DNA of 64,000 nucleotides, taken from contig CP089280.1 in the NCBI GenBank assembly GCA_023920165.1, forward strand, positions 2,232,001 through 2,296,000. The letters run 5' to 3'. Under the pieces are notes generated by a model, which had not been told where the DNA came from, did no database searches, and saw only the letters and a program-made list of their open reading frames with translations. Source of the stretch: Curvularia clavata (taxonomy: Eukaryota). Below are positions 8,863-19,224 of this stretch, piece by piece. The position numbers and the translations under genes are program-made. Each line of letters opens with the position of its first letter. Within the stretch, counting starts at the first letter, position 1.

Positions 8863-9790
8863 GGGCTGGACAAGGGGTTTCGGGCAAGTGTCTTCACTAT
8901 CATCTTATCTTATTTCGACGGAGGGCGTTTCACGTCCATAGACTACTAGATATCCTCTTTCCTTCTGCACCAGAATGACATTCAATTTGCCGCTTTTGGT
9001 CTTATTCATACTGCTGATCTAGCTGACAGTCAAGCCTTGGTGCCAGGCACTCGTGTAAAGAGTGGAAACAGGCTTGCTAGGTCATTTGGCTGAAGTACTG
9101 TCCTAGAAAGAGGCGGTGCTTGAGGTGTTAGTAAATACTAAAGCATAGGGAGACAGAAGGCTGAAAGGGGGTGGCGGCGCATTGAGGCTATGCGCAAAGC
9201 ACGGAAGGCTGATAGAAATCGTAGGCAGCAACACTCAGGAAATTAGAAGAGTATATGGAGGATGTTTTGGGGTCTCAACCATGGGCGGTCTTTCGCGCAC
9301 CGATTGCTGACAGCAAGATACTATAAGTTTGAAAATCAACGGCTAACAGACCCGTGTTTTCCAAGTCACTAAAGAAGCTCAGAGAGCTGGAAGACCAGTG
9401 TCACGATACTCACTGAGTAGGACCGACTTTGATCCTGTTGCGGCTAGCGTATTGTGGCTGCTGTGACGGATCATGGCGGCCTTCAAGCGGTCAATTACTT
9501 GAATACATTCATTTCTATCGCCGAAATGGATATTTGATAAGCGTTAGACCAATACCTGTCATATCCATGCTTGGAACAGCCTGTTTGTGTCTAGATTTTG
9601 GCTGCGCATCTCATATACGCTTGCTCAGCCTCGTGGAAATAAGGAAAGGCGCACTTGGGCCGCAGCATTCCGATACTGCTTGCATGTTCATTTCACCCTT
9701 CTCTTCTCGACACCATCGAGACTTACAGCTAGCTTCTTTGTCGCCGGATTTATCTCGACAGAAGAGTGGTCTCTGGTCCTCAGACTCAAG

Positions 9791-11560
9791 ATGACCACCG
9801 GAACCCCGCTGCCTGCTTTCGAGCACGAACCACTTCCCGAACACACCTCACACTTCCGACTCCTGCACATAATCCGTGGCGAATACGGGCAGCACGTCGA
9901 GTGTGAGATCTCGGCTTGGCCTATTGATAACGCACCGCCATACTTTGCGATATCATATACCTGGGGCGATCCGGCCGACACGGCTGAGATCACTGTCAAC
10001 GGAAGGCCTTTAGTCGTGCGACGCAACTGCGAATATGTTCTCCAGCAAGCTTTTGCAACCAAGTCAAGTAAATATTTCTGGATCGACGCCATCTGTATTG
10101 CACAGACGACAGAAGAAAAGAATCATCAGGTCGGGATCATGGGCCAAATCTATTCGAGAGCGTATCACGTTCTGGCATGTGTTGGACCCCACCACAACGA
10201 TAGCGAGTTCCTTCCAGAGGCTATCAAAGCACATTGTTCATTGATCAGAAAGATTCGCCACCGGCAGATGCCGTGGGATGAGACGTGGGAAAATCCGATT
10301 AATAGAAGCTGGAGACTACAGATTCGTTGCATTTTCCGCATTGAAACCGAGACACGTCGAAGGATCTTCCAGTCATTGTGTTCATTTATGAGGAGAACTT
10401 ACTTTCGACGTCTGTGGATAATTCAAGAGCTGCATTTAGCACGAAGTGTGTCATATTGCTTTGGGACAGCTGTAGAGGCGGCCGGAGACCTTCTTGCCCT
10501 GTACCAGCTTCTAATCATTTGGGCAGACGATGACCCTTTTCTTTGGTCCTGGCCGGTACGGTCACTTGCAACACTTGCCCGATCCACACTAGCACGTTCT
10601 CGAGCAATAATTTCACTGGCAATGGAACCAACATTTTCAGACATCTACCCTCTGTCTTTCCGCTTGAAGTTCGCCTGCACAACAAGAAAACAAAAAGTCG
10701 AGGATATACTGCTGGATCCCAATCTGCAGTGCGGTGATCCCCGAGATCGTTTGTTTGGTGTTTTGTCTGTTGTTCATCAGGAACATCGAGATGTCCCCAA
10801 GCCAGATTATACGAAGGACCTTTTCGAGGTTGCACTGGACGCTCTAAAGCTTATTTACCAAACGCATCGGATCAGAAATGACCGTTTCTGTGCAAAAAGG
10901 TTGTGCCATAGCTTCCATATCACTGGAGAAGAGGCATCTCTTCGTCGCGCCCTCAATTTGCGCTCTGGTAGACCAGCAAGAAGTGCCATATCAAAGAATA
11001 GTGACGCCACTCATATTAAAGAAAAAGTGGCCCCATACATATGGGGGGCTACTCCAATATATCGGACTAGGGAAGACCCGATGCCGTCTGGGCTGTCATA
11101 TGATGGCTTTTGGAAAATGGACGTGTCAGTGCAAGAGCAACAAGAGTACTGCATCCTGAAGTTCAAGAATGGTCCGGCCACGACATCGACATTGGCACCT
11201 CTTGGTACGAGGCATGGTGACGTGTGGTTATTCAATGGTGCAGGAAACGCAAAAGGAAGCCCGTCTATAGGCTTGATAGTCAGGCCATCAGAAAGCGGCA
11301 GATACGAGTTGATAGGGCCGACATATCCCGTCAGAATTGACGAAGAATTGCCACCATTCTACACTCTTGATAGCTTCACCGGTTTCTGGTACCCAGAGGA
11401 TCTTCTACTTTTCGGATGGACTCTGGGAGAGCTTGAGTTGCATGAGACTACGCAAGGTCAAATGATTAAGTTTGTCAATCAGCGGATTTGTGCATGGGAA
11501 GGTTCTTCATACTTTGAAAAGCAGGCTAGAATCCGGTACCCCCTTTTAAAGGTTGATTAG
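9791..11560 (+). CDS. HET-domain (heterokaryon incompatibility, HET-6-like) protein
   Basis: FRLLHI, YFAISYTWG, FWIDAICIAQ, EKNHQVGIMGQIYSRA, YFRRLWIIQEL, CGDPRDRLFG. Probable start ATG 9791 (MTTGTP). Confidence 0.88.
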   Translation: MTTGTPLPAFEHEPLPEHTSHFRLLHIIRGEYGQHVECEISAWPIDNAPPYFAISYTWGDPADTAEITVNGRPLVVRRNCEYVLQQAFATKSSKYFWIDAICIAQTTEEKNHQVGIMGQIYSRAYHVLACVGPHHNDSEFLPEAIKAHCSLIRKIRHRQMPWDETWENPINRSWRLQIRCIFRIETETRRRIFQSLCSFMRRTYFRRLWIIQELHLARSVSYCFGTAVEAAGDLLALYQLLIIWADDDPFLWSWPVRSLATLARSTLARSRAIISLAMEPTFSDIYPLSFRLKFACTTRKQKVEDILLDPNLQCGDPRDRLFGVLSVVHQEHRDVPKPDYTKDLFEVALDALKLIYQTHRIRNDRFCAKRLCHSFHITGEEASLRRALNLRSGRPARSAISKNSDATHIKEKVAPYIWGATPIYRTREDPMPSGLSYDGFWKMDVSVQEQQEYCILKFKNGPATTSTLAPLGTRHGDVWLFNGAGNAKGSPSIGLIVRPSESGRYELIGPTYPVRIDEELPPFYTLDSFTGFWYPEDLLLFGWTLGELELHETTQGQMIKFVNQRICAWEGSSYFEKQARIRYPLLKVD

Positions 11561-12761
11561 AAAAAGTGACGACAGCGATATATTCGATCAGGCCAAAGAG
11601 CCAAGGAGAAGATAGAGTAGCTAGCTCCCATGAAGTAATCAATGACACGCTAGCATTCCTGACAATATGCACATATGTAAACAGTCAACGGATGAAGGTG
11701 GAGACGGCATGTTTCATGCTGTGAGTGGACCAGAGGATTGTATCTTTGGCTGCAGATGATTAAACAGCACTGTTATGGCTGGGTGATCCATGGGCATCTC
11801 GTTTCGACTTATTGCCATAGGATGACTGTTTAGTGGGCATTGAAACGCACCACAAGGCCACAAACAATATACCCTAGGTATCCTTGGCTGAATAACGGCA
11901 CGTGATGGCAGTCGACAGATTTTGCTGGTACGGCCGGGCTGTAGATCAGCGTAACCGTAATGCAGCCCATGGATGATGTGGCGGGCTAGCAGAGGCCATG
12001 ACGTTGTAGACAGCTTTGGTTCTGGTTTACTGGTAGAAGAGCCGGCGTCTCCGCTCAAGGAGGATACTAGCGGGACCGCAAAGCAGGTGTTCCTGTTCCC
12101 GCCATGAGGGGCTTGATGGAGTAGGCCAAACGCACTGGAGTTGCATATATGGAAAAGGACCGAGCCGCATCTCCTTTTGAGGGGCAGGACGCCTAGGAAC
12201 AGGCTAGCGCTTAGGCTAGCGACGCACCAATGTGGTGCAACAAGGCCAGGCGACGTGTTTCAGAAGAACAGGGCAGGGGCGTGCGTTTGGGGAAGCAGCG
12301 ACCCGGCGACGACACCAAAATAATCCACCTTCCTCTTGCCTGGCTGCACCATCACCACCGCCAACCTACACCACCCGCCGCTCTTCACGAGTCCAAGCCT
12401 GGCACGCCCGCTACCATTGCCATTCACTCGCCTGCACCGCCTCGCCCGCCGGCTGCGCCTCCGAGAGTTGCATGTCCGTCACACATCAGCGCTCCCACTC
12501 CACTCCACTCCGCTCCGCCGCTGCTGCCCCAGCCGCTTCTCCCTCGACAGACGACCTACCGACGCATGCGACGCCTCTGATTCTGCCGCTGGACGACGGA
12601 CGCGATCGGGCACCCTTTGTTTGCACTGCCAAAGCAACGCCGACGGGGCTTCCAGAGTCCCTGTGCGAGCCGCTCCGACCAACTGCGCCGCACTTTGCTT
12701 GGCCGTCACTCAACGCCCGCCAGCCCCCAAACATTGACGACGCCGCGAGGCATGAGCTAGG

Positions 12762-15700
12762 ATGACGCGCCCTCACATTATCAGAGCAGGTAGGCACCCA
12801 GCCAACGCGCATGCCCTCCGACCCGTACAGGCTAACATAGGAGGAAAGACACGATTGACCTGCAGGATAAGACCGCCCCGACTGCCCAGGATCATTCTCA
12901 CCAACCAGAGCACCCGGCGCCTCTTGGAATAGGCCCAGCAGCGCCCCATCAGCAGGCCGCCATTCGCAGTGTAGAGAAGGAGCGTTCTTCCGAGGAGGCA
13001 CGCCTGCAGGATGCCTGGAGCCATGCTAACAACACGCTTCGCGACGACCCCGGCTCCGACGACGACCGCACCATCACAAACAATGGCCATGGACATCACT
13101 CTATGCACGATGAACAGGCTATTAGGTTGAACGGCGGCGCGCTTGTTGATGGGGATGACGCCGACATGCAGGATGCCGATGTCGACGAAGACATGGACGA
13201 CGACATGATGGACAAAATCTCGAGTTCGCCCTCTATAGACGATGGTGGGTATTTTTCACTTTATTCTCCCCTGCCCTGGCCGGCAAGACACCAGTCTCTG
13301 ACTCCGCGGTCTTCGCCCTTTCCGTCACCACTCGCTTCTTCATCTCCTTTTACAAACACACCCACTCATTTTCCTATCTCTGTCGATGCTGCAAGACCTT
13401 CCAGTGTCTCATCGTCCGACAACTCTCCTTTGTCAAGATTTCAATTCTCATCCACACCCATTTCTTTCCATCCACTTCAATCTACAGAAAATCTGTCAAC
13501 GGAGCATCATCTTGGTGAGTGTACCGGGACAAGGACCGCCAATGTACCGGACAAAGAACATCACATCAACACCGACGCGAGTGTGAGCCCGAGGTCCCTC
13601 AACTTGAAGGTAATCGAAAGGCGCCTACAGCTGATGAAGCTGATGAGCGAGGACTCGGAAGCATCACTCATTTCCGACCTCGATGAGGAAGAGGTCAGGA
13701 ACACACTGAGACCCATCAGCCGTTCCTTGCTCGACGTCTCAGATGACCCGTTCTTGGACTACGAACCCAGCTCAGCTGAGCAACTGAGAACGACGCCTTG
13801 GCTCAGCCCACAGTTCAACGAAGAAAACGACTTTGACTCCGATTCTTGGATTACCGACAGTGATGCCGACTCCTGGGACGAGAACTTTGACTCAAAATAC
13901 GATGATGCATCCATTGACATCTCCTTTTCTCATGAATCCAGATTTATCGACTCAGGCTGGGGAGGCGAATGCTTACGAGAAACAGAGGACATTGATTTCG
14001 AATTCGTCTACGCTCTACATACATTCGTTGCGACGGTAGAGGGTCAAGCAAATGCAACCAAAGGTGACACAATGGTGCTGCTGGATGACAGCAACAGCTA
14101 CTGGTGGTTGGTGCGAGTGTCCAAGGACAACAGCATCGGTATGTATCAACGCTCAAAGTACCATGCTTAGCTGACCAGTCAAGGCTATCTACCCGCGGAG
14201 CACATTGAAACACCCACGGAGCGTCTGGCCCGCCTCAATAAGCATAGGAATATCGACCTCTCTGCGACAATGCTTGGCGACACCGCCGAGAAGACTAAAA
14301 ACCCACTCAAAAAGGCCATGCGACGGAGGAATGCAAAGACGGTACAATTCGCGCCACCAACCTATGTCGAGGCATCAGACTATGACTACTCCTCGGACGA
14401 GGGCGAAGGCGAACTTTTCGGAGGCCCTGAACCAAAGGAAATGCAACAGCAGCAGCAGGCTGCAGCACAAAACAGCAATCCATCCCAAGATGAGGACATG
14501 CAAGTGCAGCCGCTCAAAGTTAATGGAGCAAAGAAGGATGGCAATGTGCAGCCGGATGGCGACGCCCGGCGCTCCAGTGACGACTCCAACAAACAGGACG
14601 GACAGCGAGGAAGCGAAGACAACCTGGATCGACCATTGGACCCCAAGGTATCGCGCAACGGCACACTACGCAACACCGACTCTTTCTTCAAAGACGACAA
14701 CACCGAAACACGCAAAATCACTCTTACGCCCAATATCCTTCGCGACGACTCAAGTTCCTCAACGACAGGCTCCCGAGAACGTGGGCCAAGTCTGGAGAGC
14801 TTGGAAAAGAACGGCTTTGCAGACAAGGTCAAGGATGACAAGAGAAAGAAGGAGAAGAAATCGGGCATGCTAAGCGGGCTGTTCAAACGTAAAGACAAGA
14901 AGGGTAAAGGTCCACAGGATTCACTGGACAGCGATATCGACAAGCAGGAGGAGGTGGATCGCAGCTCACCCCAATCGAAACCCTCAGACGAGCTTGCGGA
15001 ACGGCCGTCAAATGAGCAGGTGACTGCCCCTGCACCTTTGAGACAATCAAGCAAGAAGAAATCACAAAATCGGCCGACTCATCGAGACGAATCTCCGATC
15101 AAGACAAAGGGCATCTTGAAGACAGAGAGTCCTACGGACATGGATCCAGAAGATGATATGGACGCCGCAAATGAGGAGCCTGTCACGCAGCAGATGACCT
15201 CCTCGATGCGCTTGGTGCCACCAGAACAGGACGACACAGGCAAATCGCCTGCCGTAGAGCAAACGCCATCTGTCTCGACCTCGACCTCCACAACCTCAAA
15301 GAACCCCTTTAGTGCTCTGATGAAAACTCAACATGAAGGAGAGGTGAAGCGCGAAAAGGTCACCAAAGCCAAGCAGCGTGTGCAGTTGGACGATTTCGAC
15401 TCTGATGAAAGCAATGATCCTTTTGCAGACCCTGAAGCCGAACGTAAATCCAGTGAGGCCCAGCGTTCAGAATCCGCTGGGCGTCTGTCAGAATCGCCCG
15501 TACATATCTCTGTTGCCGATGTACAAGCAGCTCAGAAAGAGAATGGGACCGATAGAGAAGTTGATTCTCATCATGCTCCAGGTCTGTCGACCGACAGCTC
15601 AAGCCAAGAGACTAACTCACCCATATCGACGCCAACGCCCGACGACAGTCCCACTAAAACTGTTCAGGACAGTGCCGGTGCCCCACGGTCTCAGTCGGGG

Positions 15701-16120
15701 AACACTTCCCCTACGCAAATCGCGTCCAATTCGACTATACCTCCTCCCACACGACCCGCGCCCATCCCTGTCGAAGAATCCGAGCCATCTCCTCCTGCTT
15801 CTTCAGAGAGTACCATACTCCCTGCCTGGTCTGATGCTTCACTACGTGCCTATCTTGATGATGGCAGCGAAATTAGAGATATGCTCGTCGTTATCAATGA
15901 CACTACCGGTGTTGTACCAGTCGGACCTGACCATCCACTTATGAAGGACTATCTTGCCGAGGAGACAAAAACCATGCAAGGCCTGAGCGGCGAGCTTGAT
16001 CGCCTACTCAACGGACTGATGGAGAAGTCGATGAAAAGAGCGGGTAGTGCAGCTAGCAAGACTAGCACAACGCGTAGTACCAGCGCCAACGGCAGGTTGA
16101 GCGCAGGGGCAACATATTGA
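12762..16120 (+). CDS. SH3-domain cell-end marker / PP1 regulatory subunit, Tea4/Bud14/TeaC family
   Basis: Start MTRPHIIRA|DTIDLQD (intron 12790-12848); SH3 DFEFVYALHTFVATVEGQ..DDSNSYWWLVR..G|YLPAEHIETPTERLARLNKHRN (intron 14139-14183); PP1-docking KTVQF; C-terminal WSDASLRAYLD. Optional in-frame intron 13245-13985. Confidence 0.88.
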
Positions 16121-17285: not shown

Positions 17286-19224
17286 TCACACACTCTCCCT
17301 CAGTACCGCCTTAGCCGGCTTCTCATCCCCCGCTGCCTCCTCCGCCTCCTGCAGCCCCAGACTTTGCGCAATCTGAAACAACCTTGTCTTCTCCTCATGT
17401 GCAGTACCATCTCCAAACACCGCATCCATTTCCTCAAGCGACTTTCCCCTCGTCTCCGGAATCCAAAACCACGTAAACCCAAACGCCACGAGGGCAAAAC
17501 CCGCAAAGAAAATATACGTTCCAAAGCCAATCGACTCTAGCATATCCGGCGTCACAAGCCCAATGATGAAATTGCACATCCAGGTGGAAGAAGTGGTGAG
17601 CGACATGGCTTTGGAGCGGTTACCCAGGTTGTAGATTTCAGAGGGAAGCACCCAGCCGATGGGCGCCCACGAGTACGAGAAGTTGATGTCGTAAATGTAG
17701 ATGAAGGCGATGCCGGTCCAGCCTGCGGCGGGGTGAGAAGCCAAGGAGGAACCATAGCCGCCGATTACGCCACCGACGATGAGCAGAGAGATGCAGGTGC
17801 CGGCTGCACCGCAGAGGAGAAGTGGCCTGCGGCCGACTTTGTCGATGAGGAAGAGGGCGGGGAGCGTAGAGAGCGTGTTTACTATACATGTGGTTAGGAA
17901 GTTTGTCGCTTTTGGCGGATAGGAGGGAGGGCGGCTTACCGATGCCGTAGACGCCTGTTGCCAGGAGCCCCGTTGTCTTGCCTGACAAGCCCAATTGCCC
18001 GAATATCGTGGGAGCGTAGTAAATGATTGCGTTACCTTTATCCGTTAGCCCAAAAAAAAAAGAATGCCTCGTGGTGGAAGTTCAGTGTGCCTTACATCCG
18101 ATGAATTGCTGGAAAAACATAGTACAGCAACCTATCGCTGTGCGCTTAAACGACGGCCATGTGGAAAACAGCGTCGAGTATCCTGCAAGATACAGCGAGA
18201 CGCCGGATTTACCAGGGAACTTCTCTCTGTTGTATGTCTCTTCGAATATGACTTCTGAGCGGATAGCCAGATACTCTTTCTGCACGACTGGGTCATCGGG
18301 CTGCGCGCGCCGCACACGGGCTAGAGCGCGGAGCCCAGCTTCTTCGTTGTCGCGCATGCAGTAGTATCGAGGCGACTCTGGGAAGAAAAGCATACCGATT
18401 CCCAGCACGAGGCCAGGGAATATTTGAATTGCAAAGGGGACGCGCCATGCGGCGTCGCTTTGGCCGGTGCAGCCGTTTGGACCGACGTCGTTGATGGGGT
18501 CGAAGCTGGGCTCTGATGCGGTACCACCAGTGTATGGTATGTTGGGGGCACACCGAGTGCCGCCAATGTACTGGGTGCCGTACTCAAGCCAGTAGGAGAC
18601 GAGAATGCCTAGCGTGATGGAGAGTTGTTGCAGGACGACAAGCGTGCCTCTGATACCAGCGGTGGAGACCTCGCTCATGTACATGGGGACGATCATGGTG
18701 AGCATTCCAACAGCGAAACCTGCGATTGCTCGACCTAAAAACTCATCAGTTAGACTCTTGAATCAATAGTGGCAAGATGGGTTTCCATACCAGCAAAAGC
18801 CATGGGAATACTTATAGCGCCTGCTTGTAGCGCAGACCCAATGGTGAAAATCACAACGGCGATTATGATCGAACCCTTGCGGCCAAAGCGATCTGCAACG
18901 GGACCATTGACGAGGGACCCGAACCAAGCAGCGAGCAGGAGAGTCGAGACAAACCAGCCTTTGAACGAGCTGTCGAGGTAGATGCGAGGGAAGGCTGCGG
19001 CGAAGGACTCCATGGTTAGGACGCCAGAGATTACGCCTTGGTCGTAGCCGAAGAGGAAGCCACCCAAAGAAGCGAACTACAGAGGGTCAGTCGTAGAAGG
19101 GTGAATTGATCCAGAGAATATTTACAGCTGAGAGGCCAAGGAGGTATGGGTTCTGTCGCAGTTCCTTGTACACACTGATCTTCTGGGCAGGCCCAGGGCC
19201 GTCGACAAATGCTGGGTCAGACAT
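17286..19224 (-). CDS. MFS sugar porter (monosaccharide/polyol:H+ symporter family)
   Basis: GGFLFGYDQG, DRFGRK, VPMYMSE..RG..QQL, PESPR, QQFIG, IDKVGRRPL, SWAPIGWVLPSEIY, PETRGKSLEEMD; four short introns. Confidence 0.93.

Follow-up and report, generated by a model that had tools for sequence, protein, structure and literature searches.

A stop-free second intron in the TEA4/TeaC/BUD14 gene of Curvularia clavata is spliced by default and conserved as coding sequence

Results

Layout of the locus

The window, a stretch of 64,000 nucleotides of C. clavata contig CP089280.1, carries a plus-strand gene of the TEA4/TeaC/BUD14 type between an upstream gene for a HET-domain protein (9548-11560, plus strand, PF06985) and a downstream gene for a sugar transporter (17286-18044, minus strand, PF00083). 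The coding part of exon 1 (12762..12789; assembled RNA contigs and gene model) begins with MTRP and is followed by a 59-nt intron 1 (12790..12848), the joint of which is found in RNA runs X1, X2, and X9. Exon 2 (12849..13244; contigs and homologues) is acidic and ends with a conserved SSSPSIDD motif. Intron 2 (13245..13985) is a 741-nt GT..AG intron in phase 1 that contains 247 stop-free codons in the coding frame, among which codons 131 and 134 (13634..13645) are the sole Met codons and a possible internal start. The first part of an SH3 domain is encoded by exon 3 (13986..14138; PF00018 and contigs), and after the 45-nt intron 3 (14139..14183; contigs) exon 4 (14184..16120; contigs and gene model) supplies the end of the SH3 domain, a long low-complexity region and the stop codon. 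The transcript continues past this stop codon to about 16850. The gene model gives proteins of 837 aa for the spliced and 1084 aa for the retained form, with internal stops in neither, and its exon 4 is 79% identical to that of Stemphylium and 77% to that of Alternaria, which marks it as a gene of the Pleosporales.

A two-codon upstream ORF (Met-Ser-stop, 12752..12760, plus strand) lies 10 nt ahead of the main start, and an ATG at -10 is present in all eight Pleosporales loci in which the start was located. Two more ORFs occupy the leader, at 12566-12580 (4 codons) and 12472-12765 (97 codons, with a stop that overlaps the main ATG), and ATGs around -200 and -285 recur among relatives. Translational control by the leader ORFs is possible.

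The SH3 domain lies within the N-terminal third of the protein and scored 22.0 bits against PF00018 for the partial domain (cut-off 22.9) and 26.1 bits for the full homologue P0002. Annotations label the orthologues 'Tip elongation aberrant protein Tea4', a name assigned automatically. In the Tea4/TeaC/Bud14 family an RVxF-type pattern, the PP1 docking motif, is expected after the SH3 domain. The single match to this pattern, KTVQF (14336..14350, plus strand), is a predicted site present in both isoforms. The SH3 domain, the Tea4-named relatives and the RVxF-type match argue that the gene belongs to this family, with tip localisation and PP1 binding as predicted properties; a link between Tea4 and PP1 is described in PMC8108516. 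The intron 2 insert matched no Pfam family, and a PDB search returned generic SH3 domains only. AlphaFold models of homologues had a mean pLDDT of 54 for the insert-bearing P0229 and 49 for the spliced P0212, with the SH3 domain lacking a confident fold.

Intron 2 is spliced out in the sampled runs

We compared four runs as assembled contigs (X1, X2, X9, and X15). X1, X2, and X9 represent three studies, X9 being from a related organism, and are only presumed to be RNA, though all are spliced at the three introns and X9 is polyadenylated; X15 alone is recorded as RNA. Contigs of three of the four runs (X1, X2, and X9) skip exactly the 741 nt between GT and AG, and X15 has no coverage of intron 2. 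The initial annotation had read a donor (G/GTGGGT) at 13245, a branch-like GCTTAC (within TGCTTAC, 13970-13976), an acceptor (AACAG/) at 13985 and 247 stop-free codons over 741 nt, all of which we found as described. It had also equated a lack of junction reads with a plain exon, and the spliced joint in three studies rules such an exon out.

Contigs with the spliced joint reached depths of 131.7 in X1, 21.2 in X2, and 4.76 in X9. Intron-internal contigs were faint (depth 3.6 in X1 and 3.8-5.4 in X2), and X9 contained the spliced form only. No unspliced contig bridged either boundary by 31 nt on both sides; such contigs extended 21 nt across the donor and 29 nt across the acceptor. In the sampled runs splicing is the default and the spliced form dominates, with retention at most minor and possibly pre-mRNA.

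These data bear on the earlier description of intron 2 as an exitron. According to PMC4484396, exitrons of Arabidopsis and human resemble intron 2 in being stop-free, a multiple of three in length and weak in splice signals, and in that their removal deletes an internal low-complexity stretch; in those organisms the predominant transcripts keep the exitron, whereas in our runs the spliced contigs are far deeper (X1 and X2) or the only ones (X9). The label is apt for the canonical splicing, the stop-free coding sequence and the weak signals, but not for a major unspliced form. Both junction forms do occur in fungal annotations, as the initial annotation had stated: of 120 annotated proteins retrieved with exon 4 alone, nine are spliced, 51 contain the full or a partial insert, seven start inside the insert and 53 fall short of the region.

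Frame and protein sequence of intron 2 are conserved

The 741 nt contain no stop in the coding frame as against 10, 10, 14, 8, and 12 in the other five frames, and a stop-free outcome arose in 4 of 20000 dinucleotide shuffles. We then collected orthologous loci from metagenomes, using only the 50-residue SH3 exon as query, kept the best 80 of 270 loci and added the window. Among these 81 loci, 64 had both flanks, nine had no upstream motif, being truncated or divergent (the exon-2 motif of L053 contains a stop, and L025 and L027 were used for TAG only), and eight had no intron 2. Within this set of the best 80 of 270 loci plus the window, the length of intron 2 is a multiple of three in all 64 measurable loci (56 distinct, window included; 420-1422 nt), 50 of the 56 distinct introns are stop-free and six have a single TAG. 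Intron 3 of the same loci, taken from the best 80 of 270, served as control and is spread over the three length classes (24/17/14 among 55). In the 5' halves of the orthologous introns (best 80 of 270 loci) four stops occur among 6435 codons in frame, and the two other frames hold 108 and 221. The longest orthologue among the best 80 of 270 loci, the 1422-nt intron 2 of L059, is still a multiple of three and stop-free over 474 codons.

In a protein-guided alignment of nine Pleosporales-like loci, median dN/dS was 0.34 over the intron, compared with 0.135 in exon 2 and 0.05 in exon 4. When DNA was aligned blind to the frame, dN/dS in the coding frame was 0.20-0.69 and, for 13 of 14 pairs, lower than in either other frame. 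Over 13245-13615, the 5' half of the intron in the window, synonymous divergence is about half of that in the 3' half in most pairs. The whole-intron values for the window (0.42-0.54) overlap those of a 3'UTR control (0.52-1.13), and the two halves differ, at 0.22-0.39 for the 3' half and 0.68-0.88 for the 5' half, with equal dN and a 5' dS about halved. A low dS of this kind in the 5' half points to extra constraint at the nucleotide level, of the sort expected from splicing regulators or a promoter.

Every indel that separates the window from close relatives is a multiple of three (3/3 and 7/7), and third positions change most. Two 5' motifs, W[PS]xR (39 of 56 introns) and SSP[FY] (49 of 56), and an in-frame Met (52 of 56) are widely kept among the best 80 of 270 loci. 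Near the 3' end the DSGWGGE motif (13949..13969, plus strand) is maintained at the protein level, although the codon table shows its codons changing freely at synonymous sites. The insert-bearing named proteins belong to Dothideomycetes, Lecanoromycetes, Leotiomycetes, Sordariomycetes, and Eurotiomycetes. The proposed coding selection on the 741-nt frame is upheld by the length class, the open frame, the motifs and the signals kept in orthologues. A plain intron, for which frequent stops or frameshifts in orthologues had been named as the mark, is ruled out by the length in multiples of three, the open frame, the splice signals and the dN/dS data.

Seven of the eight loci without intron 2 among the best 80 of 270 also have no intron 3, are of cDNA type and carry the spliced junction. 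L015 (around 1433) is a divergent genomic orthologue, 32-40% identical to all named proteins, that has kept intron 3 and has no intron 2. One divergent lineage thus lacks intron 2, and this single locus fits gain or loss.

Weak splice signals are kept alongside the open frame

The donor GTGGGT (13245..13250, plus strand) is weak in comparison with intron-3 donors, as judged without a formal splice-site score. Among the best 80 of 270 loci, 38 of the 56 introns have the donor GTGGGT and 10 have GTGCGT, and of 55 donors of intron 3 from these loci 2 read GTGGGT. The predicted branch site TGCTTAC (13970..13976, plus strand) reads Cys-Leu in frame: TGC TTA C is identical in 56 of 56 introns of the best 80 of 270 loci, with no synonymous change, beside the synonymously varying codons of DSGWGGE. 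In the same best 80 of 270 loci the first codon is GGT and the end is YAG in every one of the 56 introns, and the codon preceding the acceptor always ends in A. TGCTTAC lies at the expected branch position and departs from CTRAY, which is the branch in 38 of 55 intron-3 controls (best 80 of 270 loci). The branch site may be weak because a consensus branch would read TAA or TGA in the open frame. A consensus donor would leave the frame open, and the weakness of the donor looks selected.

In-frame TAG codons in orthologous introns

The in-frame stops found among the best 80 of 270 loci, in six distinct full introns and the partial loci L025 and L027, are all TAG. They fall at about five positions: four Sordariomycete-like loci each have TAG elsewhere, and one site is common to a Friedmanniomyces-like group (L055:766-768, L026:1904-1906, L042:1071-1073, and L027:205-207), of which L055 is 97% like Friedmanniomyces endolithicus. 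Of the single changes that create a stop, 39% lead to TAG, and five out of five TAG would occur by chance with a probability near 0.01. In all eight cases the A of the TAG falls within a hairpin loop, compared with 14 of the 134 TA sites elsewhere and 16 of the 153 TAGs in other frames, by a criterion fixed post hoc and with the widest folding span, in which L043 failed, left out. Covariation gave the four-sequence TAG hairpin no support, with 26 of 28 cells paired and this value reached in 242 of 500 shuffles.

Over about 190 codons behind the shared TAG of the L055 group, dN/dS is 0.32-0.34 in the coding frame, as against 1.1-1.7 out of frame. No Met follows the TAG in L027 or L047, and the four-locus group has no conserved Met there. 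The column of the shared TAG is skipped in 7 of 7 annotated proteins of Friedmanniomyces, Elasticomyces, and Meristemomyces; it holds ordinary residues, none of them Trp, in Pseudocercospora, Lecanosticta, Fulvia, Vermiconidia, and Saxophila, and short gaps in Zasmidium (2) and Cercospora. Other accounts of the TAG failed. A nested intron that removes it, with both donor and branch, was found in none of the eight TAG loci, and the 17-codon skip in the Friedmanniomyces annotation is not conserved. Loss of a conserved Trp is ruled out by the stop-free relatives without Trp at this column. The shared TAG is a candidate site of editing or of read-through; no edited read turned up, and read-through would account for it equally well.

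Discussion

We think it probable that intron 2 of TEA4/TeaC/BUD14 is an old dual-use intron, spliced by default and retained and translated under some condition, most likely fruiting-body development. Default splicing, which we observed, would yield the 837-aa protein in which SSSPSIDD is joined straight to the SH3 domain. The weak donor and branch site together with the open frame would permit conditional retention and translation into 1084 aa, as the selection on the frame suggests. In the long form 247 Ser/Pro/Asp-rich residues ending in DSGWGGECL would replace the N-terminal flank of the SH3 domain, while the domain and the RVxF-type motif stay. Such a swap of the flank, with its long phosphorylatable spacer, would most likely change partners or localisation of a PP1-targeting scaffold. 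In some lineages a second lock would have been added: a single in-frame UAG, placed in a hairpin loop and in need of A-to-I correction. The copy in the window has no in-frame UAG, so that splicing control alone would set the isoform. The conserved splice switch with two isoforms proposed in the initial annotation stands on the observed splicing and on the frame, length class, motifs and splice signals kept in orthologues, from which translation of the long form is deduced. By orthology with FgBUD14 of Fusarium graminearum, the retention condition would most likely be fruiting-body (ascus) development. A splice-blocked FgBUD14 allele is said to have served sexual development and not normal growth.

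The two isoforms might instead respond to conidiation, stress or an infection structure, or retention might be a constant minor fraction, which we regard as unlikely. Intron-internal contigs do occur in runs of unrecorded stage. Alternaria and Friedmanniomyces are not known to have a sexual stage, and the frame is kept in both, which we count in favour of a non-sexual cue. The retention reported for Pyricularia oryzae TEA4 came from conidia and hyphae data (PMC8475275). However, the sole studied orthologue, FgBUD14, links the switch to sexual reproduction, and the recurring TAG fits the editing system of the sexual stage.

A promoter situated within the 5' half of intron 2, giving a shorter transcript from Met131/134 with only the 3' half coding, alone or besides retention, is also improbable, if by no means negligible. 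It would suit the divergent dN/dS of the two halves in the window lineage, with dS depressed in the 5' half as for a regulatory element, and the in-frame Met of most introns. Depth in X2 is 64.4 downstream of intron 2 versus 21.2 upstream, which 3' bias explains equally. A promoter cannot account for a length in multiples of three in 56 of 56 introns or for a 5' half with so few stops in frame, nor does it need the two 5' motifs, and 4 of 56 introns have no Met (all among the best 80 of 270 loci), as is also the case after the TAG of L027 and L047. A plain intron with a relic frame, whose long form is no longer made in the lineage of the window, agrees with the dominance of splicing in all three informative runs but is very improbable, being contradicted by the indels in multiples of three, the variable third positions and the low dN/dS of the 3' half.

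The dual-use reading has a close counterpart in FgBUD14 (Liang et al. 2021, Environ Microbiol 23:5052), for which a review describes alternative splicing of intron 2 and A-to-I correction of its UAG in sexual reproduction; according to PMC11050156, PMC10962958, and PMC12582100 the mutant has crozier and ascus defects. Both are second introns of the same gene family, and alternative splicing of the FgBUD14 intron yields a longer coding form, which is linked to the development of croziers and asci. FgBUD14 intron 2 has a UAG that needs A-to-I editing, whereas the Dothideomycete intron of the window is stop-free and needs none. By gene family, intron number and TAG pattern, the two introns are probably the same. 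In P. oryzae TEA4 (MGG_06439) PMC8475275 reports a 579-bp second intron, also a multiple of three, that is retained in a minor transcript, with a truncated 263-aa product and a spliced form of 812 aa. This resembles the long, retainable second intron of the window, but the product is truncated there, whereas the frame of the window is full-length. A dual-use intron 2 would explain why the retained transcript was termed aberrant.

The core of the switch is already in print for Fusarium; the additions made here are the stop-free variant, the breadth over five or more classes and the repeated gains of TAG. A result from a single species, FgBUD14, becomes class-spanning. The order of the layers was probably a weak-signal coding intron first and an editing-dependent stop later and repeatedly. 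Correction of premature stop codons by Tad2-Tad3-Ame1 is reported, in PMC11156358 and PMC11087585, for Sordariomycetes and Pyronema, and it resembles the eight orthologous loci in that the UAG sits in a hairpin loop and is followed by coding sequence, the stop-free copy in the window being unaffected. The four loci of the shared TAG differ from these reports in being Dothideomycete-like. Across PMC11087585, PMC7306014, PMC10776026, PMC10041177, PMC13123824, PMC13199489, and PMC12754623, mRNA editing is placed in Sordariomycetes and Pyronema, and OLD-ZAO editing also in Eurotiomycetes; a 2024 review leaves Dothideomycete mRNA editing open, with the hairpin loop as the reported context of fungal editing. 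A literature search covering sources outside the subscription journals found neither class-wide conservation of intron 2 nor A-to-I editing in Dothideomycetes in print, and the supplements searched (PMC10776026 for BUD14/Tea4 and PMC8475275 for MGG_06439) gave no match.

We tentatively suggest, at somewhat under even chances, that a developmental splice switch is ancestral in most filamentous ascomycetes and that a UAG hairpin lock was added to it about five times, with one Dothideomycete gain (L026, L027, L042, and L055) that would be recoded most simply by A-to-I mRNA editing. If true, UAG recoding in a class without reported editing would mean a further origin or a wider reach of fungal mRNA editing, and the shared TAG offers a single marker site at which to ask about editing in Dothideomycetes.

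A dual-use intron 2 would also explain why databases hold at least three incompatible models of this gene: spliced, read-through and with invented small introns. In public annotations spurious partial introns are often placed within the insert (P0100, P0031-P0036, and P0330-P0339), producing gene models that are incompatible with one another.
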